A DNA stretch of 12,891 nucleotides from a virus (IMGVR_UViG_2526164631_000017); one strand, 5' to 3'. Numbered from the stretch's first letter, positions 340 to 12,891 are shown. The notes: a model not told the origin generated them from the sequence alone. Program-made: numbers and translations.

Positions 340-365
340 CCAGACGGTGCTGAGACGACGCTTAC
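340..365 (-). repeat. Terminal inverted repeat (IRL-like) of the left IS66-family copy
   Basis: Read inward from 365 on the minus strand: GTAAGCG... Imperfect match to 12550-12575. Confidence 0.6.
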
Positions 366-1986
366 GGATTACCGTCGTGTGGCGCTGACGGATTATGACC
401 GTTTCCCTGAAAACGTGGACGGGGAAGGGGATGCCTTCACCCTGGCATCAAAGCGTACCACCACCTTTATGTCCTCGGGGATGACCCTGGTCGAGAGTTC
501 GCCGGGGCGGGATATCACTGACACCAAATGGCGCTGTGGCGGCGCACATGAGGCACCGCCAACAACGGGGATCCTGTCACTGTATAACCGGGGAGACCGC
601 CGCCGGTGGTACTGGCCGTGTCCGCACTGCGGGGAATATTTTCAGCCGGTGATGGATAACATGACCGGATACCGGAATAACCCGGATTTTGTGGCTGCCG
701 GTCAGGCTGCCCGTCTGATGTGTCCGCATTGTCGCGGGCTGATTGCCCCTGAGCAGAAACGCGAACTGAATAACAAAGGGATCTGGCTTCGTGAAGGTGA
801 ACGGGCGGTGGCGGACGGCAGTATCACCGGAACGCCACGAAATTCCCGGATTGCGTCATTCTGGATGGAGGGGCCGGCTGCGGCGTTTCAGACCTGGGAA
901 CAACTGATTTTTAAACTGCTGGCGGCAGAAGAAGAGTATGAGCGAACCGGCAGTGAAGAGACCCTGAAAGCGGTGGTGAACACCGATATCGGACGCCCCT
1001 ATCTGCCCCGTTCAGCCACGGAACAGCGTAAAAGTGAACTGCTTGAACAGCGTGCCGAGCCGTTTCCCCGGCGATCTGTGCCGGATGGTGTGCGTTTTAT
1101 TGAGGCAACGGTTGACGTACAGGGCGGTAAAAATCGCCGTTTTGTTGTGCAGATCACCGGATACGGAGAGCAGGGGGAACGCTGGATTGTTGATCGCTAT
1201 AACATCCGGCATTCACTGCGCTGCAGTCCCAACGGTGAAAGTCTGCCGGTTGATCCGGCGGCATATCCGGAGGACTGGGATTTGTTGCTGACGGATGTGT
1301 TCCATAAAACATGGCCGCTGGCTTCTGATCCGGATGTGCGCATGCGTCTGATGGCCATGGCGGTGGATACGGGAGGGGAAGCCGGGGTGACAGATAACGC
1401 CTATCGTTTCTGGTGTCGTTGCCGGAGTGACGGACTGGGCAACAGGGTGTTTCTGTTCAAGGGGGATGGACTTCGCCGTGACAGGCTGATTAACCGTACC
1501 TTCCCGGATAATACCGGCAGAAGTGCCCGCCGTGCCAGAGCCAGTGGCGATGTCGCGCTGTGGCTGGTTCAGACGGATGCGTTTAAGGACCGTGTAAATA
1601 ATGCCCTGTGGCGTGACACACCAGGGCCGAACTATATCCACTTTCCCGACTGGCTGGGGCGATGGTTTTACGATGAGCTGACCTATGAAGAGCGCGGCAG
1701 TGACGGAAAATGGCGAAAACCGGGCAGGGGAGCTAACGAGGCGTTTGACCTGCTGGTTTATGCGGATGCGCTTGCCGTTCTGCATGGTTACGAAAAGATC
1801 CGCTGGCCCTCCGCACCGGACTGGGCACAGCGGGAAACGTGGCTCGTCTTCCCGCAGGAGCGTTCTGGTGAAACGGTATCCCCGGAACTGACGGCCGGGG
1901 CAGAAAAACGCCGTCGCCGGAAGAAAAAACTGCGGACGGAGCGTGCGGAAGATAATCCATGGATAACATCAGGAGGCTGGTTGTGA
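366..1986 (+). pseudogene. Terminase large subunit (GpA-like), 5'-truncated by IS insertion
   Basis: Long ORF immediately upstream of gpW-like and portal genes; two CPHC motifs (WPCPHCGEYF, MCPHCRGLI) as in GpA-type terminases. The first 27 codons of the tracked ORF (283-365) lie inside the IS terminal repeat, so the ATG at 283 is not a native start. By rough comparison with lambda gpA from memory, about 100+ N-terminal residues are missing, including the ATPase region. Stop TGA at 1984-1986. Confidence 0.8.
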
Positions 1987-2195
1987 GCACAGAAGAAGCC
2001 AGAGAAATGATACAGCGGTACCGTGAAGCGGAAATGGCCGTACTGGAGGGGAAGTCTGTCACCTTCAACGGACAGCAACTGACGCTGGAAAGCCTTTCTC
2101 AGATCCGCGCCGGACGTCAGGAGTGGGAACGCAGGCTTGCCGCGATGGTGAGCCGCAGGCGGGGAAAACCAGGATTTAAACTGGCGAGGTTTTAA
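1983..2195 (+). CDS. W: Head-tail joining protein, gpW-like
   Basis: C-terminus RRRGKPGFKLARF resembles lambda gpW C-terminus (RRRGPAGF.. from memory); about 70 aa; sits between terminase and portal. Likely start is GTG 1983 with AGGAGG at 1971-1976, overlapping the terminase stop as GTGA; the alternative ATG at 1959 (track ORF) cannot be excluded. Confidence 0.75.
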   Translation: MSTEEAREMIQRYREAEMAVLEGKSVTFNGQQLTLESLSQIRAGRQEWERRLAAMVSRRRGKPGFKLARF

Positions 2196-3697
2196 TGGCA
2201 ATTATTGATGATGTGATAGGCGTGTTTTCCCCCGGCTGGAAAGCAGCCAGACTGCGTTCAAGGGCGTTAATCATGGCCTATGAGGCGGTGAAACCGACCC
2301 GGACACATAAAGCCCGGCGGGAAAATCGCTCTGCTGATCAGCTCAGTAAATACGGTGCGGTTTCCCTGCGGGAGCAGGCCCGTTTTCTGGATATCAATCA
2401 TGACCTGGTGATTGGTGTGTTTGACAAGCTGGAAGAGCGGGTGATTGGTGCCAGGGGAATTATTGTGGAGCCTCAGCCATTACGAAAAAACGGGGAAATG
2501 GCGGCAGAGCTGGCTGCGGATATCCGCCGGTTGTGGGCTGAGTGGTCCGTGAGTCCGGATGTGACAGGGCAGTATACCCGTCCCGTGCTTGAACGTTTAC
2601 TGCTGCGGACCTGGCTGCGGGATGGTGAAGTGTTTGCGCAGATGGTCAGTGGTGCGGGAAACGGTCTGGAACGGACGGCGGGAGTGCCATTCTGGCTTGA
2701 GGCGATGGAGCCGGATTTTGTTCCCATGCGCACTGATGAATCCGCCGGACTGAATCAGGGGGTTTTTCTTGATGAGTGGGGAAGACCGAAAAAATATCTG
2801 GTTTATAAAAATTATCCGGTCAGCGGCCGGCAGAGTGATACGAAAGAAATCGCTGCCGGAAAAATGATCCACCTGAAGTTCACTCGTCGTCTGCATCAGA
2901 CGCGAGGCTCATCCATGTTATCGGGGGTGCTGATGCGGATCAGTGCCCTTAAGGAGTATGAGGATGCGGAACTCACTGCGGCGCGTATTGCCGCGGCGCT
3001 GGGACTGTATATCCGTAAAGGTGACGGGCAGGACTATGAAGAGCCGGGGATCAAAGAAACCGACCGGGAAGTCCATATCACCCCGGGTATTATTTATGAC
3101 GATTTGCGCAAGGGCGAGGATATCGGCATGGTCAAATCAGACCGTCCCAATCCCAACCTTGAAACTTTCCGCAACGGCCAGTTGCGTGCAGTGGCAGCGG
3201 GCAGTCGTCTGAGTTTTTCCAGTGCGGCGCGTAACTATAACGGCACCTACAGTGCCCAGCGGCAGGAGCTGGTCGAGTCCACGGATGGTTACCTGATCCT
3301 GCAGGACTGTTTTATTGGCGCGGTAACCCGTCCGGTGTACCGGACATGGCTGAATATGGTGGTTGCGGCAGGTCTGCTGAAAATTCCGGCGGATGTGGAG
3401 ATGAAAACGCTATATAACGCGACGTATTCCGGTCCGGTGATGCCGTGGATCGACCCGGTTAAGGAAGCTGAAGCCTGGAGAATTCAGATCCGGGGTGGTG
3501 CAGCGACAGAATCTGACTGGGTGCGTGCCGGCGGGCGCAATCCGGATGAGGTCAAACGTCGCCGCAAGGCTGAAATTGATGAAAACAGCAGACTGGGGCT
3601 GGTCTTTGATACTGACCCCGTCAACGACAAAGGAGGCAACAGTGCCGGAACTGAACAACAGCGTCAGCAGGCCACCGACAGCCAGCATGAAGAATAA
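2195..3697 (+). CDS. Portal protein
   Basis: 500-aa ORF directly after gpW-like gene and before the protease gene (canonical terminase–W–portal–protease order); start ATG overlaps the W stop (TAATG). Not closely similar to lambda gpB by eye, so this is a mosaic head module. Confidence 0.75.
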   Translation: MAIIDDVIGVFSPGWKAARLRSRALIMAYEAVKPTRTHKARRENRSADQLSKYGAVSLREQARFLDINHDLVIGVFDKLEERVIGARGIIVEPQPLRKNGEMAAELAADIRRLWAEWSVSPDVTGQYTRPVLERLLLRTWLRDGEVFAQMVSGAGNGLERTAGVPFWLEAMEPDFVPMRTDESAGLNQGVFLDEWGRPKKYLVYKNYPVSGRQSDTKEIAAGKMIHLKFTRRLHQTRGSSMLSGVLMRISALKEYEDAELTAARIAAALGLYIRKGDGQDYEEPGIKETDREVHITPGIIYDDLRKGEDIGMVKSDRPNPNLETFRNGQLRAVAAGSRLSFSSAARNYNGTYSAQRQELVESTDGYLILQDCFIGAVTRPVYRTWLNMVVAAGLLKIPADVEMKTLYNATYSGPVMPWIDPVKEAEAWRIQIRGGAATESDWVRAGGRNPDEVKRRRKAEIDENSRLGLVFDTDPVNDKGGNSAGTEQQRQQATDSQHEE

Positions 3698-5666
3698 ATC
3701 CTGGTTCAGGATGCAGGCGGGTGGTCAGGGTGAGGCGGATATTTATATTTATGACGAGATTGGTTTCTGGGGAGTTACCGCGAAGCAGTTTGTCAGCGAT
3801 ATGAATGCCCTGGGTGATATCACCCACATTAATCTCCACATCAACTCACCGGGTGGCGATGTCTTTGAAGGCATCGCCATTTTTAATGCCCTGAAAAATC
3901 ACGGTGCGGCCATTACCGTGTATGTGGATGGCGTTGCCGCCTCGATGGCATCCCTGATTGCGATGGCCGGTGACACGGTCATTATGCCGGAAAATGCCTT
4001 CATGATGATCCATAAACCCTGGGGGATCAGCGGTGGTGATGCGGAGAAAATGCGCACTTATGCCGAACGTCTGGACAAACTTGAGTCGGTTATGGTGCCG
4101 GTATATGCGCAGAAAACCGGAAAAACTACCGATGAAATTGCCGCCATGCTGGCGGATGAGACCTGGATGTCCGGTGCCGAGTGTCTGGCACACGGATTTG
4201 CAGACCAGGTGACGCCAGCCGTTAAGGCAATGGCATGTATTCAGTCAAAACGTACAGAGGAATTTAAAAAGATGCCGGAATCCATCCGAAATATGATCAC
4301 GCAGCCATACAACAGTGCCCCGCGTGATACCACAGTGACAATCCCTGCACCGGCGGTAACAGAACCATCACCGGTACCGGCAGTGTCTGATGAGGCGACC
4401 ATTCGCGCCCGCGTTATGGCAGAACAGAAAGCCCGCATGTCAGGCATTAACGATCTGTTTGCCATGTTCGGCGGTCGCTATCAGACGCTTCAGGCACAGT
4501 GCGTGGCTGATCCTGACTGTTCGCTGGAAATGGCCCGTGAACGTCTGCTGAATGAAATGGGCAAGGAGTCCTCGCCGACCAACAAAAATACACCGGCTCA
4601 TATTTATGCCGGAAACGGCAATTTTGTGGGGGACGGGATCCGCCAGGCGATGCTGGCCCGTGCCGGATTTGAAAATGTCGAGAAGGATAACGCCTATAAC
4701 GGGATGACCCTGCGTGAATGGGCTCGCATGTCACTGACGGAGCGCGGTATTGGGGTGGCCAGTTATAACCCCATGCAGATGGTCGGGCTGGCGCTGACGC
4801 ACAGCACCTCTGATTTTGGCAATATTCTGCTGGATGTGTCGAACAAGGGGCTGATCCAGGGCTGGGAGGAATCAGAAGAAACCTTCCAGAAGTGGACCCG
4901 TAAGGGACGCCTGTCAGACTTCAAAACAGCGTATCGCGTGGGGATGGGCGGTTTTGGTTCTCTGCGCCAGGTTCGTGAGGGGGCGGAGTATAAATACATC
5001 ACCACCTCAGATCGCAAGGAGACCATTGCACTGGCCACTTACGGGGAGATTTTCTCCATCACCCGCCAGGCCATTATCAATGATGATCTGAATATGCTGG
5101 TGGACGTGCCGATGAAGATGGGGCGTGCGGCGAAGGCAACGATTGGTGACCTGGTTTACAAGGTGCTGACGGATAACCCGAAACTGTCAGACGGTAAGGC
5201 GCTGTTCCATGCCGATCACAAAAATATTGCCACCGGTGGGATTTCCGTTTCCGGACTGGATGCGGCCCGTCAGATGATGCGCCTGCAGAAAGAAGGCGAT
5301 CGCGCCCTGAATATCCGTCCGGCCTTTATGCTGGTACCGGTGGCACTGGAGACGGTGGCGAACCAGACCATCAAATCGGCCAGTGTGAAAGGGGCGGATG
5401 CAAACGCCGGTGTCATTAACCCCATCCAGAACTTTGCTGAGGTGATTGCAGAAGCGCGTCTTGATGCGGCAGATCCGAAAACCTGGTATCTGGCGGCGGC
5501 ACAGGGCACTGACACCATTGAAGTGGCCTGGCTGGATGGTGTGGACACGCCATACATTGATCAGCAGGAAGGTTTCACCACTGACGGCATTGCCACAAAA
5601 ATCCGTATTGATGCCGGAGTGGCACCACTTGACTGGCGCGGGCTGGTGCGTTCGTCGGTGGCCTGA
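3642..5666 (+). CDS. Prohead protease (ClpP-like) – scaffold – putative major capsid fusion protein
   Basis: N-terminal domain has ClpP-type motifs: GVAASMASLIAMAGD (GxxSMA catalytic Ser context) and MMIHKPWG (catalytic His context). No separate major-capsid-sized gene follows, and the C-terminal ~350 aa look like an HK97-fold capsid domain (inference). Proposed start is GTG 3642 with AAAGGAGG 5 nt upstream; the track ORF start 3495 and ATG 3687 are alternatives. Confidence 0.7.
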   Translation: MPELNNSVSRPPTASMKNKSWFRMQAGGQGEADIYIYDEIGFWGVTAKQFVSDMNALGDITHINLHINSPGGDVFEGIAIFNALKNHGAAITVYVDGVAASMASLIAMAGDTVIMPENAFMMIHKPWGISGGDAEKMRTYAERLDKLESVMVPVYAQKTGKTTDEIAAMLADETWMSGAECLAHGFADQVTPAVKAMACIQSKRTEEFKKMPESIRNMITQPYNSAPRDTTVTIPAPAVTEPSPVPAVSDEATIRARVMAEQKARMSGINDLFAMFGGRYQTLQAQCVADPDCSLEMARERLLNEMGKESSPTNKNTPAHIYAGNGNFVGDGIRQAMLARAGFENVEKDNAYNGMTLREWARMSLTERGIGVASYNPMQMVGLALTHSTSDFGNILLDVSNKGLIQGWEESEETFQKWTRKGRLSDFKTAYRVGMGGFGSLRQVREGAEYKYITTSDRKETIALATYGEIFSITRQAIINDDLNMLVDVPMKMGRAAKATIGDLVYKVLTDNPKLSDGKALFHADHKNIATGGISVSGLDAARQMMRLQKEGDRALNIRPAFMLVPVALETVANQTIKSASVKGADANAGVINPIQNFAEVIAEARLDAADPKTWYLAAAQGTDTIEVAWLDGVDTPYIDQQEGFTTDGIATKIRIDAGVAPLDWRGLVRSSVA

Positions 5667-5688
5667 TAACCGAGTTATCACAATCACT

Positions 5689-5707
5689 GCCCGAAAGGGC
5701 TTTTTTT
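5689..5707 (+). terminator. Candidate intrinsic terminator after the capsid gene
   Basis: GCCC-GAAA-GGGC hairpin (4-bp GC stem, GNRA-type loop) followed by T7 at 5701-5707, 23 nt after the stop at 5666. The stem is short, so this may be a partial terminator. Confidence 0.4.
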
Positions 5708-5718
5708 ATGCCTGAAAA

Positions 5719-5737
5719 ACAGCCCCACAGGGGCTGT
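5719..5737 (+). promoter_or_regulatory. Perfect hairpin (8-bp stem ACAGCCCC / GGGGCTGT, 3-nt loop) upstream of the next gene's ribosome-binding site
   Basis: Seen directly in sequence. No T-run follows. GGAG at 5740-5743 and ATG at 5754 lie just downstream. Possible RNA stability or translation-control element. Confidence 0.3.
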
Positions 5738-5753
5738 CCGGAGAAACAGCATT

Positions 5754-6080
5754 ATGGCGAAAAATTTTGTACAGGACGGTACCACCATTGAACTGGTGAA
5801 TGCCGGAGATCAGACCATCCTGAGCGGTGCTGCGGTGGTGGTCGGCAGTATGGTGGCCGTGGCCATTACAGATATTCCTGCCGGTGATGCCGGTGACGGT
5901 TTTGCCGAAGGCGTGTTCCTTCTGCCCAAACAGTCTGCTGACGACATTCAGTCCGGCGCGGTGGTTTATCTGAAGGACGGGGTTGTGCAGCTGGCTGCAG
6001 AGGGTGCGGTGGCCGCGGGGGTAGCCTGGGAAAATGCTCCTGCAAACAGCGCCACTGTGGCGGTAAAAATCAATGTCTGA
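5754..6080 (+). CDS. Small head protein, DUF2190-like (putative decoration or head-associated protein)
   Basis: 108 aa, Gly/Ala/Val-rich: MAKNFVQDGTTIELVNAGDQ...; resembles the small conserved proteins commonly encoded next to major capsid genes (from memory; function is inference). Confidence 0.5.
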   Translation: MAKNFVQDGTTIELVNAGDQTILSGAAVVVGSMVAVAITDIPAGDAGDGFAEGVFLLPKQSADDIQSGAVVYLKDGVVQLAAEGAVAAGVAWENAPANSATVAVKINV

Positions 6081-6354
6081 TCTGTTTACGCGAATGTGTT
6101 GCCGGATGGACGGGGCGACCGTTCGGGTGATGGGCAAACAGGCGGAGATTAACGGCGTCGTGTATGACGTGATGCCGGAGGAAGAGTCCGCGGAGATGGG
6201 GGCGCTTTCGGGCAGCCAGTTGTCACTGGTGGTGTTTTCAGCCCGGTACCGTCCGGCCCGTCATGATGTTGTTGTGTTTGCGGGGCGCACACTGACGGTG
6301 ACCCGTTATGACACGTACAACGGTAAACCCCGGATTTTTGTCGAACAGGAATGA
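6073..6354 (+). CDS. Putative head completion / head-tail connector protein (at the FII position)
   Basis: 93-aa ORF between the head genes and gpZ; start ATG overlaps the upstream stop (ATGTCTGA). Assignment is by position only; similarity to lambda FII is weak. Confidence 0.4.
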   Translation: MSDLFTRMCCRMDGATVRVMGKQAEINGVVYDVMPEEESAEMGALSGSQLSLVVFSARYRPARHDVVVFAGRTLTVTRYDTYNGKPRIFVEQE

Positions 6355-6356
6355 GT

Positions 6357-6980
6357 ATGGCAATAAAAGGTCTGGCGCAGGCCATGAAAAATCTGGATGC
6401 AATTGACCGCCGTGCCGTTCCCCGGGCTGCCGCCACGACACTTAACCGTGTGGCGGAGTCCATCATCGCGAAAACGGCCTCTTCGGTTGCCAGGGAGCTG
6501 GCGGTTCCGCGCCGTCTCATCCGTGAGCGTATCCGCCTGCAACGGGCTAGCGCAGACAGGATTTATGCGAAGGTCATCATCAACACCGGTAATCTGCCCG
6601 CCATAAAACTGGGGACGGCCAGCGTGCGGCTTTCCCGCAGAAAGCGACGAAAGAAAGGCGAGCGTTCGGTCAAGAAAGGGGGCGGCAGTGTGCTGATTGT
6701 GGGGAAAAGACGGATCCCGGACGCCTTTATCACCCGGCTGGCTAACGGACGCTGGCATGTGATGCAGCGTATGCCGTGGGCACCATCGTCCACCGGTGCT
6801 GACAGCAAAGGGAGGCCGAAACGCTACCGTCTGCCGATTGAAGTGGTGAAAATTCCGACTGCCGGACCGCTGGCAGAAACTTTTGAACGTGAACGGGACC
6901 GGATGTACCGGGAAAAATTACCGGCGCAGATGATGAAAGCCATGACGCATCAGTTACGCCTGGTGCTGAAAAGAAAATGA
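6357..6980 (+). CDS. Z: Minor tail protein Z (tail completion)
   Basis: Directly upstream of unmistakable gpU; basic run RRKRRKKGERS and motif GRWHVMQR, which I associate with the GpZ family. Start ATG 6357 (MAIKG...) preferred over 6351. Confidence 0.7.
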   Translation: MAIKGLAQAMKNLDAIDRRAVPRAAATTLNRVAESIIAKTASSVARELAVPRRLIRERIRLQRASADRIYAKVIINTGNLPAIKLGTASVRLSRRKRRKKGERSVKKGGGSVLIVGKRRIPDAFITRLANGRWHVMQRMPWAPSSTGADSKGRPKRYRLPIEVVKIPTAGPLAETFERERDRMYREKLPAQMMKAMTHQLRLVLKRK

Positions 6981-6992
6981 CAGGGAGGGTGT

Positions 6993-7391
6993 ATGAAACA
7001 CCGTGAAATACGGACGGCAGTTCTGTCTGCCCTGAAAGACAATATTTCTGAGCGGGTGAGCTGGTTTGACGGCCGCCCGGTTTTTATTGATGAACAGGAA
7101 CTGCCTGCTGTTGCTGTTTACCTGACTGATGCGTCTGCTGCTGACGAGTTCGTTGATGAGGGGACCTGGGAGGCGACACTGCATATTGAAGTTTTTCTCA
7201 GGGCAAAAGAACCGGACTCGGCACTGGATATGTGGATGGAAGAGAAAATCCTTCCTGCGCTGGAGGCGGTTCCCGGCCTCAGTGCGTTACTGCTGAAGAT
7301 GAATCTTCAGGGGTATGACTACCGCCGGGATGATGAGTTTATGATGTGGGGATCGGCAGATCTCCTGTGGAAAATTACCTACGAGATGTGA
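6993..7391 (+). CDS. U: Tail terminator protein U
   Basis: 132 aa; [14 protein letters not shown]...LHIEVFL...GYDYRRDD...ITYEM closely matches lambda gpU as recalled. GGGAGG ribosome-binding site upstream. Confidence 0.9.
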
Positions 7392-7398
7392 GGACGAT

Positions 7399-8151
7399 AT
7401 GGCAATACCAAATCCTCTTGAGCCGGTGAAAGGTTCCGGCACCACACTATGGGTGTACACCGGCAAGGATGATGCTTATGCCAACCCGTTGTCAGATGAT
7501 GACTGGCAGCGACTGGCTAAGGTGAAGGATCTGACGCCGGGCGAGATGACGGCAGAATCCTACGATGATAACTACCTGGATGATGAAGACGCGGACTGGA
7601 GCGCGACCGGGCAGGGACAGAAATCTGCAGGTGATACCAGTTTTACACTGGCCTGGAAACCGGGAGAGGAAGGCCAGAAAGGGCTTATAGGCTGGTTTGA
7701 AAGCGGCGATGTGCGGGCCTATAAAATCCGTTTCCCGAACGGCACGGTGGATGTGTTCCGTGGCTGGGTCAGCAGTATCGGTAAGGCCGTAACGGCGAAG
7801 GAAGTGATCACCCGTACGGTGAAAGTGACCAACGTGGGTAAACCTTCTGTGGCGGAAGAACGCAGCGAAATTACGCCGGCCACTGCAATTAAGGTGACAC
7901 CGACATCCGGTACCGTGGAAAAAGGGAAAACAACCACCCTGACTGTTTCTTTTGAGCCGGAAAGTGCAACCGACAAGACGTTCAGAGCGGTTTCCGCCGA
8001 TCCGTCAACGGGAACCATTGCTGTGAAAGATATGGTGATCACTGTGACGGGGGTTAAGGCTGGAAAAGTGAGTATCCCCGTGATTTCCGGTAATGGTCAG
8101 TTTGCCACGGTAGCTGAAGTCACCGTTACTGAAGCAGGCGCTGCAGGGTAA
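7399..8151 (+). CDS. V: Major tail protein V, including C-terminal Ig-like domain
   Basis: 250 aa; long stretches identical to lambda gpV as recalled ([59 protein letters not shown]). C-terminal ~90 aa is Thr/Val-rich, Ig-like. Confidence 0.92.
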
Positions 8152-8164
8152 ACGGAGGTCATAC

Positions 8165-8596
8165 ATGTTTCTGAAAACAGAACAATTTGAATATAACGGT
8201 GTGTCTGTCACGCTTTCCGAGCTGTCTGCGCTGCAGCGTATTGAGCATCTTGCCCTCCTGAAACGGCGGGCAGAAGAGGCTGAAGCCAGCGGCAACCTGC
8301 AGGTGAGTGTGGAAGATCTTGTCAGAACCGGCGCGTTTCTGGTGGCGATGTCCCTGTGGCATAACCATCCACAGAAAACGCAGTCACCGTCAATGAATGA
8401 GGCCGTGATGAAGATAGAGCAGGAAGTGCTCACCACCTGGCCTGCCGATGCCATTGCCCGGGCGGAAGACGTGGTGTTGTGCCTGTCCGGGATGATCGAA
8501 GCTGTTCGTCCGGATACTGATATTACTGAAGTGGCGAAAAATAACACGCTGACTGATGATGATTTTTCTGCGGGAAAGTCTTCGACGGTGAGCTGA
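8165..8596 (+). CDS. G: Tail assembly chaperone G
   Basis: 143 aa; MFLKTEQFEYNGVSVTLSELSALQRIEHLAL...GAFLVAMSLWHNHPQKTQ matches lambda gpG as recalled; ends ...SAGKSSTVS. Confidence 0.92.
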   Translation: MFLKTEQFEYNGVSVTLSELSALQRIEHLALLKRRAEEAEASGNLQVSVEDLVRTGAFLVAMSLWHNHPQKTQSPSMNEAVMKIEQEVLTTWPADAIARAEDVVLCLSGMIEAVRPDTDITEVAKNNTLTDDDFSAGKSSTVS

Positions 8597-9027
8597 ACTT
8601 TGCCCTCAGACTGGCGCGTGAGATGGGGAGACCCGACTGGCGCGCCATGCTTGCCGGGATGACATCCACCGAATATGCCGACTGGCACCGTTTTTACCGC
8701 ACGCATTATTTTCAGGATACCCAGCTGGATATGCATTTTTCCGGGCTGACGTACGCTGTACTCAGCCTGTTTTTTTGCGATCCGGATATGCATCCCTCTG
8801 ATTTCAGTCTGCTGGCACCCCGACGTGATGATGAGCAGACGGAGATGCCGGATGAGGACGATATGCTGATGCGGAAAGCGGCAGGTCTTTCTGGTGGTGT
8901 CCGCTTTGGGGCTGACGGGAAGGAAATCGTTATGGTCAGTGATGACATGCGGAGCAGTACAGAGGATGAAGCCATGCTGATGATGGTGTCTGAGGGAATT
9001 CCAGGAGGTGTACGCTATGGCGGGTAA
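8165..9027 (+). CDS. T: Tail assembly chaperone G-T fusion made by programmed -1 ribosomal frameshift (slip at 8572-8578; T-frame part 8578-9027)
   Basis: Slippery heptamer G GGA AAG at 8572-8578 in the G frame, near the end of G. The -1 frame is open from there to TAA at 9025-9027 (VFDGELNFALRLAREMGRPDWRAMLAGMTS...), and the 8623-9027 track ORF is its tail. Same arrangement as lambda G/G-T. Confidence 0.85.
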
Positions 9028-11623
9028 TTTTGCCGATCTGACAGCTGTTCTTACACTGGATTCAACCCGTTTTTCTGAAGAGGCTGCACGGGTAAAGAAA
9101 GAACTGGGTGAAGCCAGTGACCTTGCGGATTTGATGGCCGTGCGTGTCAGCCAGTCTTTTAAGAAACAGGCCGCTGCTGTTGAGCAGGGGCTGAGCCGTC
9201 AGGCGCTGGCTGCACAAAAAGCCGGGATTTCCGTCGGGCAGTATAAAGCGGCCATGCGTACGCTACCCATGCAGTTCACCGACGTGACCACGCAGCTTGC
9301 CGGTGGTCAGAATCCCTGGCTAATTCTGCTGCAACAGGGCGGGCAGATTAAGGACTCGTTCGGTGGGATGATCCCCATGTTCCGGGGACTGGCTGGGGCC
9401 GTCTCGCTGCCTGCTGTCGGAATTGGTGCGCTTGCTGCTGCCACGGGGGTGCTGGCGTATGCCTGGTACCGGGGCGACGCCACGCTTTCAGAATTTAATA
9501 AAACGCTGGTTCTTTCCGGTAATCAGTCCGGACTGACTGCCGATCGCATGCTGACGCTCTCCAGAGCCGGACAGGCCGCGGGGCTGACGTTTAACCAGGC
9601 GAGAGAGTCACTGGCAGCCATGGTGAATGCCGGTGTGCGTGGTGGTGAACAGTTTGATGCCATCAACCAGAGTGTCGCGCGTTTTGCTTCTGCATCCGAC
9701 GTGGAGGTGGACAAGGTTGCAGAGGCTTTCGGAAAACTGACCACTGACCCGACGTCGGGGCTGATTGCGATGGCGAAGCTGTTCCATAACGTGACGGCAG
9801 AGCAGATTGCGTATGTTGCACAGTTACAGCGTTCCGGTGATGAGGCCGGGGCATTGCAGGCGGCGAACGATATTGCCACGAAAGGCTTTGATGAGCAGAC
9901 CCGTCGCCTGAAAGAAAACATGGGGACGCTGGAGACCTGGGCGGATAAAACAGGGAAGGCGTTCAAATCGATGTGGGATGCCATCCTGGATATCGGTCGT
10001 CCGGAATCCTCAGCGGATATGCTCGCCAGTGCGCAGAAGGCATTTGATGAGGCGGATAAAAAATGGCAGTGGTACCAGAGCCGGAGCCAGCGCCGCGGTA
10101 AAACCTCCTCTTTCCGGGCCAACCTTCAGGGCGCATGGGATGACCGGGAAAATGCCCGTCTGGGTCTGGCAGCGGCAACGCTGCAGTCGGATATGGAAAA
10201 AGCCGGTGAACTGGCGGCAAGGGACAGGGCTGAGCGTGAGTCGTCACAGCTGAAGTATACCGGAGAGGCGCAGAAGGCGTATGAGCGCCTGCTGACGCCA
10301 CTGGAGAAATATACCGCCCGGCAGGAAGAGCTGAATAAGGCCCTGAAAGACGGAAAAATCCTGCAGGCGGATTACAACACGCTGATGGCGTCGGCAAAAA
10401 AGGATTATGAATCGACGCAGAAAAAGCCGTCAGGTGTGAAGGTGTCTGCCGGTGAGCGCCAGGAAGACCGGGCGCATGCAGCCATGCTGTCGCTTGAAAC
10501 TGAGCTCAGGACGCTGGAGAAGCACAGCGGTGCGAATGAAAAAATCAGCCAGCAGCGCCGGGATTTATGGAAAGCGGAAAATCAGTATGTGGTCCTGAAA
10601 GAGGCCGCCACGAAACGGCAGTTATCTGAGCAGGAAAAATCCCTGCTGGCTCATGAGAAAGAGACGCTGGAGTACAAACGCCAGCTGGCTGAGCTGGGCG
10701 ACAAGGTTGAACACCAGAAACGGCTGAATGAGCTGGCACAGCAGGCGGCGCGGTTTGAACAGCAGCAGAGTGCGAAGCAGGCGGCAATCAGCGCAAAAGC
10801 CCGCGGACTCACCGACCGTCAGGCGCAGCGGGAGTCGGAAGAGCAGCGCCTTCGTGAGGTGTACGGTGATAATCCGGATGCGCTGGCGAAGGCCACATCT
10901 GCACTGAAGAACACCTGGTCTGCGGAGGAGCAGCTTCGTGGAAGCTGGATGGCCGGGATGAAGTCCGGCTGGGGTGAGTGGGCGGAAAGTGCGACGGACA
11001 GTTTTTCGCAGGTTAAAAGCGTGGCCACGCAGACCTTTGACGGTATTGCACAGAATATGGCAGCGATGCTGACCGGCAGTGAGCAGAACTGGCGCAGCTT
11101 CACCCGTTCCGTGCTGTCCATGATGACAGAAATTCTGCTTAAGCAGGCAATGGTGGGGATTGTCGGGAGTATCGGTAGCGCCATTGGCGGGGCTGTTGGT
11201 GGCGGCGCATCCGCATCAGGCGGTACAGCCATTCAGGCAGCTGCGGCGAAATTCCATTTTGCAACCGGAGGATTTACGGGAACCGGCGGCAAATATGAGC
11301 CAGCGGGAATTGTTCACCGCGGTGAATTCGTCTTCACGAAGGAGGCAACCAGACGGATTGGCGTGGGGAATCTCTACCGGCTGATGCGCGGCTATGCCAC
11401 CGGCGGTTATGTCGGTACACCGGGCAGCATGGCGGACAGCCGGTCGCAGGCGTCCGGGACGTTTGAGCAGAATAACCATGTGGTGATTAACAACGACGGC
11501 ACGAACGGTCAGATAGGGCCACAGGCACTGAAGGCTGTTTATGACGTAGCCCGTAAGGCGGCAATGGATGTTGTGACCGGGCAGATGCGCGATGGTGGTC
11601 TGTTCTCCGGAGGTGGACGATGA
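9017..11623 (+). CDS. H: Tail tape measure protein H
   Basis: About 868 aa; N- and C-terminal thirds closely match lambda gpH as recalled (QALAAQKAGISVGQYKAAMR, LILLQQGGQ, C-terminal GGFTGTGGKYEPAGIVHRGEFVFTKEAT). ATG 9017 with AGGAGG at 9003-9008 preferred over the GTG 9008 track start. Confidence 0.92.
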   Translation: MAGNFADLTAVLTLDSTRFSEEAARVKKELGEASDLADLMAVRVSQSFKKQAAAVEQGLSRQALAAQKAGISVGQYKAAMRTLPMQFTDVTTQLAGGQNPWLILLQQGGQIKDSFGGMIPMFRGLAGAVSLPAVGIGALAAATGVLAYAWYRGDATLSEFNKTLVLSGNQSGLTADRMLTLSRAGQAAGLTFNQARESLAAMVNAGVRGGEQFDAINQSVARFASASDVEVDKVAEAFGKLTTDPTSGLIAMAKLFHNVTAEQIAYVAQLQRSGDEAGALQAANDIATKGFDEQTRRLKENMGTLETWADKTGKAFKSMWDAILDIGRPESSADMLASAQKAFDEADKKWQWYQSRSQRRGKTSSFRANLQGAWDDRENARLGLAAATLQSDMEKAGELAARDRAERESSQLKYTGEAQKAYERLLTPLEKYTARQEELNKALKDGKILQADYNTLMASAKKDYESTQKKPSGVKVSAGERQEDRAHAAMLSLETELRTLEKHSGANEKISQQRRDLWKAENQYVVLKEAATKRQLSEQEKSLLAHEKETLEYKRQLAELGDKVEHQKRLNELAQQAARFEQQQSAKQAAISAKARGLTDRQAQRESEEQRLREVYGDNPDALAKATSALKNTWSAEEQLRGSWMAGMKSGWGEWAESATDSFSQVKSVATQTFDGIAQNMAAMLTGSEQNWRSFTRSVLSMMTEILLKQAMVGIVGSIGSAIGGAVGGGASASGGTAIQAAAAKFHFATGGFTGTGGKYEPAGIVHRGEFVFTKEATRRIGVGNLYRLMRGYATGGYVGTPGSMADSRSQASGTFEQNNHVVINNDGTNGQIGPQALKAVYDVARKAAMDVVTGQMRDGGLFSGGGR

Positions 11624-11949
11624 AAACCTTCCGCTGGAAAGTGAAACCCGGTATGGATGTGGCTTCTGCCCCTTCCGTAAGAAAGGTGCGCTTTGGTGAT
11701 GGCTATTCCCAGCGAGCGCCTGCCGGGCTGAACACTGACCTGAAAACGTACAGCGTGACGCTTTCTGTTCCCCGTTGGGAGGCCGCGGCGCTGGAGTCGT
11801 TTCTGGCTGAGCACGGGGGCTGGAAGGCCTTTCTGTGGACGCCGCCTTATGGCTACCGGCAGATAAAGGTGACCTGCGCAAAATGGTCGTCGCGGGTCAG
11901 TATGCTGCGTGTTGAGTTCAGCGCAGAGTTTGAACAGGTGGTGAACTGA
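11620..11949 (+). CDS. M: Minor tail protein M
   Basis: 109 aa; MKTFRWKVKPGMDVAS...KVTCAKWSSRVSMLRVEFSAEFEQVVN near-identical to lambda gpM as recalled. Start overlaps the H stop (ATGA). Confidence 0.93.
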   Translation: MKTFRWKVKPGMDVASAPSVRKVRFGDGYSQRAPAGLNTDLKTYSVTLSVPRWEAAALESFLAEHGGWKAFLWTPPYGYRQIKVTCAKWSSRVSMLRVEFSAEFEQVVN

Positions 11950-12549
11950 TGCAGGATATCCGACAGGAAACACTGAATGAATGCACCCGTGCGGAGCAGT
12001 CTGCCAGCGTGGTGCTCTGGGAAATCGACCTGACAGAGGTCGGTGGAGAACGTTATTTTTTCTGTAATGAGCAGAACGAAAAAGGTGAGCCGGTCACCTG
12101 GCAGGGGCGACAGTATCAGCCGTATCCCATTCAGGGGAGTGGTTTTGAACTGAATGGCAAAGGCACCAGTACGCGCCCCACGCTGACGGTTTCTAACCTG
12201 TACGGTATGGTCACCGGCATGGCGGAAGATATGCAGAGTCTGGTCGGCGGAACGGTGGTCAGGCGTAAGGTTTACGCCCGTTTTCTGGATGCGGTGAATT
12301 TCGTCAACGGAAACAGCGACGCCGATCCGGAGCAGGAGGTGATCAGCCGCTGGCGCATCGAGCAGTGCAGCGAACTGAGCGCGGTCAGTGCCTCCTTTGT
12401 ACTGTCCACGCCGACGGAAACGGACGGCGCTGTTTTTCCGGGACGTATCATGCTGGCCAACACCTGCACCTGGACCTATCGCGGCGATGAGTGCGGTTAT
12501 CACGGTCCGGCGGTCGCGGATGAATATGACCAGCCAACGTCCGATATCA
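11949..12549 (+). pseudogene. L: Minor tail protein L, 3'-truncated by IS insertion
   Basis: First ~200 aa match lambda gpL as recalled (MQDIRQETLNECTRAEQSASVVLWEIDL...GPAVADEYDQPTSDI). Homology stops at 12549, where the IS terminal repeat begins, and the ORF then reads 35 unrelated codons to a stop at 12659. The Cys-rich C-terminal region recalled for lambda gpL is missing. Confidence 0.85.
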
Positions 12550-12575
12550 GTAAGCGGCTCGCCAGAACCGTATTG
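12550..12575 (-). repeat. Terminal inverted repeat (IRR-like) of the right IS66-family copy
   Basis: GTAAGCGGCTCGCCAGAACCGTATTG begins exactly where gpL homology ends; GTAA terminus; imperfect match to the left repeat. Confidence 0.65.
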
Positions 12576-12579
12576 ATAT

Positions 12580-12891
12580 TTACTGAGAGGTCAGATCAAC
12601 TTTCCAGGGCAACAGATCGCGTACCCGGTTTGCCGGCCAATCCTGGATATGCTCAATGACGTAACGCAGCCATTTTTCTGGTTCCACATTGTTCAGACGG
12701 CATGTGCCGATCAGCGAGTACAACACCGCCGCATGTTCGCCACCGCTGTCGGAACCCGCGAACAGCCAGTTTTTCCGGCCTACGGCCACTCCCCGTAAGG
12801 CGTTCTCTGCGATGTTGTTGTCGATTTCCACCCAGCCATTACTGCAGTACACGTTCAGGCCATCCCACTGTTTCAGCAGGTATGCGAACGC
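12580..12891 (-). CDS. tnpC: IS66-family transposase (TnpC), C-terminal part; gene starts beyond the window end
   Basis: Translation ...VEIDNNIAENALRGVAVGRKNWLFAGSDSGGEHAAVLYSLIGTCRLNNVEPEKWLRYVIEHIQDWPANRVRDLLPW is the conserved C-terminal signature of IS66-family transposases. The reading frame stays open upstream of the tracked start to the window edge. Confidence 0.88.
   Translation of the reverse strand, partial: AFAYLLKQWDGLNVYCSNGWVEIDNNIAENALRGVAVGRKNWLFAGSDSGGEHAAVLYSLIGTCRLNNVEPEKWLRYVIEHIQDWPANRVRDLLPWKVDLTSQ

Follow-up and report, generated by a model that had tools for sequence, protein, structure and literature searches.

Head, neck and tail genes of a defective lambdoid prophage: a Gifsy-2-type head ahead of a mosaic lambda-family tail

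We found that the stretch of DNA analysed here (virus IMGVR_UViG_2526164631_000017, 12,891 nucleotides, hereafter the window) was the operon encoding the virion proteins of a defective lambdoid prophage, with all long ORFs on the + strand, as in a lambdoid late operon. Positions 5754–6980 represent the neck segment of this operon (decoration protein, FII-like stopper and Z), in a well-known class of prophages in which a head of the Gifsy-2/mEp460/cdtI/Sakai type stands ahead of lambda-family tail genes. A sharp and recurrent mosaic joint was observed at 7374, between U and V, about 1 kb downstream of the interval 6080–6360 in which a sequence-only reading had placed the junction. The whole account, namely a head and neck class, an old boundary at 6354/6357 and later exchanges in the tail (at 7374 and elsewhere) among lambdoid prophages, is very probably correct.

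The window matched a prophage of Escherichia coli O111:H2 strain 12A over its full length with 99.4% identity. By megablast, the same arrangement and gene order were found in VT1-Sakai/Sp15, CP-1639, Stx2_95, 1720a-02 and several Stx2 phages, with 91–94% DNA identity over 361–12554. The matches to the Stx phages started at 361–365, that is, past the end of ISEc22, and the phage matches all stopped at 12549–12554, before the end of IS679. Because the gene of the terminase large subunit is interrupted by ISEc22, and L is broken off after residue 202 by IS679, with loss of the start of K, the prophage is defective. RefSeq names already exist for every gene of the locus, and the gene coordinates proposed by the sequence-only reading (5754–6080, 6073–6354, 6351/6357–6980, and then U to L) were borne out. 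The features are as follows.

1–360, − strand: end of an IS66-family element (ISEc22) in the terminase large-subunit gene (annotation of the O111:H2 12A locus)
364–1986, + strand: 3' fragment of a gpA-type terminase large subunit, N-terminal ATPase part missing (Pfam)
1983–2195, + strand: W-like head-tail adaptor (phrog_118 'head-tail adaptor', E 8e-33)
2195–3697, + strand: portal protein of the lambda family (Pfam Phage_portal_2, E 3e-80)
3687–5666, + strand: fusion of ClpP-like prohead protease and major capsid protein, Gifsy-2 type (Pfam)
5754–6080, + strand: head decoration/cement protein (DUF2190, Phage_cement_2; Pfam E 5e-19; phrog_122 'head decoration')
6073–6354, + strand: FII-like head-closure ('stopper') protein, Gifsy-2 family PF13856 (Pfam E 6e-14)
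6357–6980, + strand: Z, tail completion protein, alternative start at 6351 (Pfam Minor_tail_Z)
6993–7391, + strand: U, tail terminator (Pfam Phage_tail_U)
7374–7403, + strand: conserved 30-nt block ATTACCTACGAGATGTGAGGACGATATGGC, comprising the end of U with its stop codon, the Shine-Dalgarno sequence and the start of V (alignment)
7399–8151, + strand: V, major tail tube protein with a C-terminal Ig-like domain (Pfam Phage_TTP_12 and Big_2)
8165–8596, + strand: G, tail assembly chaperone
8623–9027, + strand: T, tail assembly chaperone
9008–11623, + strand: H, tape measure protein, internally mosaic
11620–11949, + strand: M, 91% identical to lambda in amino acids
11949–12554, + strand: L residues 1–202, 98.5% identical to lambda in amino acids
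12555–12891, − strand: end of an IS66-family element (IS679) that truncates the 3' end of L (annotation of the O111:H2 12A locus)

It was considered whether the junction might be a chimera produced when two prophages were assembled into one sequence. Similar lambdoid prophages are numerous in E. coli genomes (a median of 4 matching places per genome with a match), and such prophages can confuse short-read assemblies. However, the contiguous arrangement was present in 12 phage records and in complete genomes, 533 of the 5426 complete E. coli genomes carrying 5000–8200 as a single block, and only one position outside 7713–8218 differed from the strain 12A locus. With regard to the nearest genome, 88 of the 89 differing alignment columns fell within 7713–8218. 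An assembly chimera is therefore exceedingly improbable.

The upstream part of the operon was found to encode a head of the Gifsy-2/mEp460 type. A ClpP (S14) protease and the capsid protein are fused in a single ORF, which holds CLP_protease (residues 94–240) and Phage_capsid_4 (residues 430–720) and bears the RefSeq product name 'ClpP-like prohead protease/major capsid protein fusion protein'. Pfam and PHROG placed TerL, the W-like gene and the portal upstream of it, and the DUF2190 and PF13856 genes downstream. The head gene order is that of mEp460, mEp213, cdtI and PhiR47_1; in Gifsy-2, mEp460, mEp213 and cdtI the same series (TerL, W-like, portal, protease-capsid, DUF2190, PF13856) is likewise followed by Z, U, V and onward. 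The head proteins were 99–100% identical to those of VT1-Sakai and 72–78% to those of mEp460, mEp213, cdtI and PhiR47_1. The terminase fragment, in which Pfam GpA_ATPase was covered at profile positions 127–247 only and GpA_nuclease was complete, showed 72–73% identity to mEp460, mEp213 and cdtI; the portal 78% to mEp460 and cdtI; the protease-capsid fusion 73–77% to mEp460, mEp213 and cdtI; and the decoration protein 50–64% to mEp460 and mEp213. The W-like adaptor occupies the position of lambda W and of the annotated mEp460 adaptor. It was reported that the heads of mEp213 and LLS are very unlike that of lambda and resemble Gifsy-2, with a fused protease-coat protein, while their tails are lambda-like (PMC12315714). 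According to the same paper, the fused gene of the Gifsy-2 type comprises protease, scaffold and capsid, and its product is processed into protease, scaffold and coat on assembly (Effantin et al. 2010, as cited there).

The claim of the sequence-only reading that the head proteins do not resemble those of lambda was right in part. It held for the protease-capsid fusion and for the decoration protein, neither of which matched any lambda protein by BLASTP; a sequence search of the decoration protein against the PDB returned nothing meaningful. It probably failed for the gene at 6073–6354, discussed below, and it failed for the terminase and portal, which belong to the same Pfam families as lambda A and B (GpA_ATPase/GpA_nuclease and Phage_portal_2, respectively) with identities of 25% and 21%. 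In summary of the comparison with lambda, C, Nu3, D, E and FI had no counterpart in the window, and A, B and FII were only remotely related to window genes (21–27%). Upstream of 6354, lambda C, Nu3, D, E and FI would have been replaced by non-orthologous or remotely related genes.

The gene at 6073–6354 is the last of the head-type block and lies directly upstream of Z. Its product matched the Gifsy-2 structure PDB 2pp6 with an E value of 3e-13. BLASTP gave no match between this protein and lambda FII, and Pfam assigned it to PF13856, not to an FII model. When the profile of its family was compared with that of FII from lambda, N15 and PhiR12_2* by hhalign, an E value of 3.4e-5 and a probability of 72% were obtained, with 82 of 93 columns aligned. 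An AF2 model was then taken from an alignment (pLDDT 74) in place of a single-sequence AF2 model that was unusable (pLDDT 53); the alignment was shallow, since the homologues found were all at least 56% identical, most of them above 75%, and all were members of PF13856. The structure search with this model returned its own family (2pp6) first, and then 114-residue chains of lambda neck/portal entries (8xow_f, E 5e-3; 8k37_M, E 7.5e-3, TM 0.59), with TM values ranging from 0.51 to 0.59. Both entries, 8k37 and 8xow, contain gpFII, and the stopper proteins of other siphophages ranked after the lambda chains. The model thus had a fold resembling that of FII, and the gene is placed after the head genes and ahead of Z. 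Based on the hhalign comparison, the 2pp6 match and the matches of the AF2 model, the gene at 6073–6354 is equivalent to FII and probably related to it by remote homology. Its earlier description as 'connector-like' was a fair one. The FII-like protein was 99% identical to that of the VT1-Sakai-type phages and 57% to that of mEp460; its nearest relatives outside its own group were all phages with Gifsy-2-type heads (56–58%).

The downstream part of the operon carries a lambda-family tail. Z, U, V, G, T, H, M and L were found in the same order as in lambda (NC_001416), together with the G/GT slippery site, read from the sequence as GGGAAAG at 8572–8578. Z is the first gene directly similar to lambda. 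The identities to lambda were 54% for Z (up to 58%, depending on the comparison), 55% for U, 76% for V, 68% for G, 73% for T and 77% for H, which contradicts the earlier statement that the proteins from Z/U onward are very close to lambda. At the level of about 90% or more, the statement applied only to M and to residues 1–202 of L. The truly near-lambda parts are these two and the 3' part of H (11025–11474), where the DNA identity was 0.96–0.99; at 9975–10274, within the same gene, it was 0.43–0.56. The contrast between head and tail drawn by the sequence-only reading was therefore upheld, as a Gifsy-2-type head with a lambda-family tail, whereas a uniformly near-lambda tail was not.

Comparison with other phages gave a different picture for each tail gene. 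Z showed 41–50% identity to mEp460, N15 and phi80, and its nearest relatives outside its own group were lambda-type phages (53–54%). U showed 57% identity to PhiR12_2*, 55–56% to mEp213 and 48% to mEp460; V, 96% to PhiR12_2* and 57–58% to mEp460; G, 99% to PhiR12_2* and only 43–49% to VT1-Sakai; and L, 93% to mEp460. Unlike in the mEp460-type phages, V to M of the window fell in the lambda clade (V 76% to lambda versus 57–62%; H 77% versus 27–37%).

At the DNA level, BLASTN with a word size of 7 detected no similarity to lambda upstream of 6355. Because the genes from Z onward are orthologous to those of lambda, similarity to lambda is first detectable there. The matches were as follows.

6355–6390: 86% over 37 bp
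6592–6773: 68%
7164–7240: 73%
7311–9021: 74.7%
9161–10023: 80.7%
10242–12549: 89%

In 150-nt windows, the identity to lambda remained at background (about 0.5–0.6) through Z and U, rose for the first time at about 7350–7425, was patchy from V to H, and reached at least 0.96 only at 11025–11474 and 11850–12450; values near 0.45–0.55 in the global alignment correspond to the background of unrelated DNA and were not counted as homology. The sliding-window comparison proposed by the sequence-only reading thus gave an identity to lambda that was neither uniformly high nor uniformly low. Synonymous divergence (dS) was calculated for each gene by the Nei-Gojobori method.

Z: lambda 2.08, PhiR12_2* 2.24
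U: lambda saturated, PhiR12_2* 1.76
V: lambda 1.34, PhiR12_2* 0.16
G: lambda 0.66, PhiR12_2* 0.03
T: lambda 0.84, PhiR12_2* 0.54
H: lambda 0.71, PhiR12_2* 0.31
M: lambda 0.14, PhiR12_2* 1.00
L: lambda 0.10, PhiR12_2* 1.39

A gradient of this kind could also arise if the whole operon had descended vertically and its proteins were under differing constraint. It is true that FII, Z and U outpace portal and capsid elsewhere (between mEp460 and mEp213, identity is 78% for the portal, 57% for Z and 55% for U). Nevertheless, dS, which is little affected by protein constraint, ranged from saturation in Z and U to 0.10 in L relative to lambda, and relative to PhiR12_2* it fell abruptly across U|V. The nearest relative also switched from gene to gene, being VT1-Sakai for the head, PhiR12_2* for V and G, and lambda followed by mEp460 for L; G was as distant from VT1-Sakai as given above while the head was 99% identical. 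Vertical descent is therefore highly improbable. The spread of dS and the gene-by-gene switch of nearest relatives demonstrated that the gradient is true mosaicism rather than rate variation.

According to the sequence-only reading, a single recombination at about 6080–6360 joined a non-lambda head to a near-lambda tail. Several observations were in line with this. The FII-like stop and the Z start (6354/6357) coincide with the onset of detectable lambda homology, while DNA similarity to same-head phages, continuous from ~365 at 71–73.5%, ended at 6082 for cdtI and PhiR47_1, at 6120 for mEp213 and at 6239 for mEp460. The nearest outside relatives of the FII-like protein and of Z differ, being phages with Gifsy-2-type heads for the former and lambda-type phages for the latter. 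In the comparison of Z proteins, that of the window was only slightly closer to lambda (58%) than to other lambdoids (46–50%), and the neighbour-joining tree of Z grouped the window with VT1-Sakai, lambda and PhiR12_2* at 89% bootstrap. Separately, the 37-bp lambda match at 6355–6390 was considered as a linker and rejected, as it encodes the Z N-terminus MAIKGL, which is conserved or nearly so in most of the lambdoid Z proteins compared.

Against a single recombination at 6080–6360, Z and U were only 54–58% identical to lambda, with saturated dS. U showed no lambda affinity: in the U tree the window fell into no resolved group, and in the V tree it joined the lambda clade at 100% bootstrap. 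Relative to mEp460, no step in divergence was found across 6351 (FII-like 57%, Z 48–50%, U 48%, V 57–58%), with dS saturated on both sides, and no step in identity or dS was found at 6080–6360 relative to mEp460, VT1-Sakai or PhiR12_2*. Z and U directly follow the PF13856 gene in all same-head phages examined (mEp460, mEp213, cdtI, PhiR47_1 and VT1-Sakai). Among nearly all lambdoids compared, Z and U were mutually 46–61% identical whatever the head type, and closer pairs existed only within the lambda/N15/PhiR12_2* and mEp460/cdtI/PhiR47_1 groups. Across the phage collection, window-type FII-like genes (at least 97%) and window-type Z (>80%) occurred in the same records (12 of 12), all of which matched 5600–7450 contiguously at 90% or more. 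Among 60 E. coli records sampled at even spacing from 3477 matching ones, none had a match that started or ended within 6080–6360, megablast being blind to old joints. The base composition was also unchanged, with no break in GC or skew found at 6080–6360. In addition, a scan of 5500–8300 for promoters and terminators gave counts no higher than those in shuffled sequence.

These results suggested that a single recombination at 6080–6360 is unlikely. Of that proposal, the start of lambda similarity at 6355 stood; no step and no sampled match ends were found there, and the sharp joint is elsewhere. An ancient exchange at or just upstream of Z is nevertheless conceivable, given the grouping in the Z tree and the identity of Z to lambda (54–58%) relative to same-head phages (41–50%). 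In the reading that we prefer, 6354/6357 would be an old boundary common to the whole class, where no recent crossover took place, and the FII-like gene, Z and U would travel as one block with the head type.

The sharp joint nearest to the segment in question was located at 7374. The block ATTACCTACGAGATGTGAGGACGATATGGC hardly varied among the window, VT1-Sakai, PhiR12_2* and lambda, and the alignment showed no relation between window-type and lambda-type U just upstream of it. At this point the identity to PhiR12_2* increased from about 0.6, i.e. background, to 0.93–1.00, and dS across U|V dropped from 1.76 to 0.16. By megablast, matches began exactly at 7374 in 32 of the 60 sampled E. coli records, and also in lambda-type phages. 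In the records starting at 7374, the gene ahead of this point carried the annotation of another 'minor tail U family' protein. A closer look at two loci of this kind, in PhiR12_2* and in a prophage of strain Z1323CEC0013, showed genuine lambda-type heads (Nu1, A, W, B, S49 peptidase, D, E, FI and FII), each followed by its own Z and U. V of the window was 96% identical to that of PhiR12_2* in amino acids and 96.3% to that of the Z1323CEC0013 prophage in nucleotides.

Further steps in identity were observed at about 8175–8250 (V/G, relative to VT1-Sakai), at about 8850–9150 (T/H), inside H, and before M and L. The patch at 7713–8218, which holds nearly all differences from the nearest genome, spans the Ig-like C-terminal domain of V, the V–G spacer and the first G codons. 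Many E. coli genomes carry the closest allele (99.1%) of this fresh patch of ~500 bp; in strain FDAARGOS_1059, whose genome is one of the window's two nearest, it lies at a second locus. The patch is a direct illustration, within the window itself, of the exchanges proposed below.

The visible mosaic would thus be the product of later homologous exchanges within the tail genes among co-resident lambdoid prophages, with putative exchange points at 7374 (the 30-nt block between diverged alleles), at 8850–9150 (T/H), inside H and before M/L. We infer that such exchanges proceeded by homologous recombination at short conserved stretches, mediated by RecA or by phage Rad52-like recombinases. Co-adaptation of the FII-like protein and U may keep the neck genes linked to the head, since by analogy with lambda assembly U would have to dock onto the FII-type stopper. 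More tentatively, the FII-like gene, Z and U could form a co-adapted cassette that follows the head, and ATTACCTACGAGATGTGAGGACGATATGGC could be a preferred crossover site, a linker of the Susskind-Botstein type, for reassortment between head-plus-neck and tail; this is conceivable, although we consider it rather doubtful.

The nearest known relatives, Stx and non-Stx lambdoid prophages of the VT1-Sakai type from EHEC and other E. coli, share with the window 98% identity in U, 90% in Z and 93% in V. They differ in carrying other alleles of G, T, H, M and L (77% for L) and a 250-bp divergent patch in Z. VT1-Sakai has IS629 in the capsid gene, and IS insertions in morphogenesis genes are typical there too; but ISEc22 and IS679 of the window and their insertion sites are unlike those of the VT1-Sakai-type phages. 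Altered head regions in several prophages, IS-disrupted genes and recombination between prophages were reported for strain Sakai, and the prophages pooled in EHEC both recombine with and complement each other (Asadulghani et al. 2009, PMC2669165). It was also reported that temperate and defective lambdoid phages form mosaics by relaxed homologous recombination, that small fragments move more frequently than entire modules, and that diverged sequence is no bar to phage Rad52-like recombinases (De Paepe et al. 2014, PMC3945230). The window resembles the mosaicism with defective prophages described in these two reports (PMC3945230, PMC2669165) in its patches of >90% identity among diverged flanks, its short conserved joint, the exchange of small fragments and the presence of a matching allele at a second locus of a related strain. 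As far as sequence comparison shows, there was no difference in kind.

The architecture and mosaicism of the locus are already known, and nothing in it departs from its class. The locus agrees with, and does not alter, the published picture of lambdoid mosaicism and of EHEC prophages as a pool from which new phage combinations arise, and its value lies mainly in the correct annotation of a very common class of E. coli prophages. For this class it indicates that Z and U, commonly counted among the tail genes, remain associated with the head type, that the exchangeable tail unit begins at V, and that exchange of small patches continues between co-resident, partly defective prophages.

When the window was aligned with E. 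coli O111:H2 12A, the complete genome closest to it, 89 alignment columns differed, and 88 of these fell inside a single interval covering parts of V (tail tube protein) and G (tail assembly chaperone):

7713-8218: divergent stretch of ~500 bp, comprising the C-terminal, Ig-like domain of V, the spacer between V and G, and the 5' end of G

It was found that the allele carried at this interval has a 99.1% match in many E. coli genomes. Among these matches is a second locus of strain FDAARGOS_1059, whose genome is one of the two closest to the window. The patch looks like the result of a recent gene conversion between co-resident prophages.

The tail gene Z contains a small intragenic mosaic patch at 6450-6700. 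This mid-gene segment of ~250 bp showed 73–77% identity to the lambdoid phage VT1-Sakai, with flanks at 96–100%. Over the entire Z protein, the identity between the window and CP-1639 was 97.6%.

At the boundary between the head-type and tail-type genes, the stop codon of the FII-like head-closure gene (6352-6354) was separated by a 2-nt gap from the ATG of Z at 6357. An alternative Z start, the ATG at 6351, would overlap the FII-like stop as ATGA. This arrangement suggests translational coupling of FII-like and Z across this boundary. Further downstream, a slippery heptamer was observed within the chaperone genes:

8572-8578: GGGAAAG, near the end of G

The site is identical to the slippery heptamer of the –1 frameshift in lambda G/GT, and the product of T is therefore likely to be a G-T fusion.

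In the head-type block, a candidate terminator-like structure was located:

5689-5708: GCCCGAAAGGGCTTTTTTT, a hairpin with a T run behind it, a short way 3' of the capsid gene

In mEp460 and mEp213, lambdoid phages of the same head type, the annotation places Rho-independent terminators at this same position. The hairpin was not picked up by a simple terminator scan, because its stem has just 4 pairs.

Both ends of the window are occupied by IS66-family elements:

1-360: ISEc22, IS66 family, inserted in the terminase large-subunit gene
12554-12891: IS679, a second IS66-family element, in place of the last ~30 codons of L

Because of the replacement by IS679, the open reading frame at 11949-12659 has an IS-derived end; the start of K is likewise replaced by IS679 in the reference genome. 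At the opposite end, the window retains only a 3' fragment of the terminase large-subunit gene (364-1986), in which the ATPase-domain profile is missing its first ~126 positions. Unaided, the prophage is unable to package DNA.
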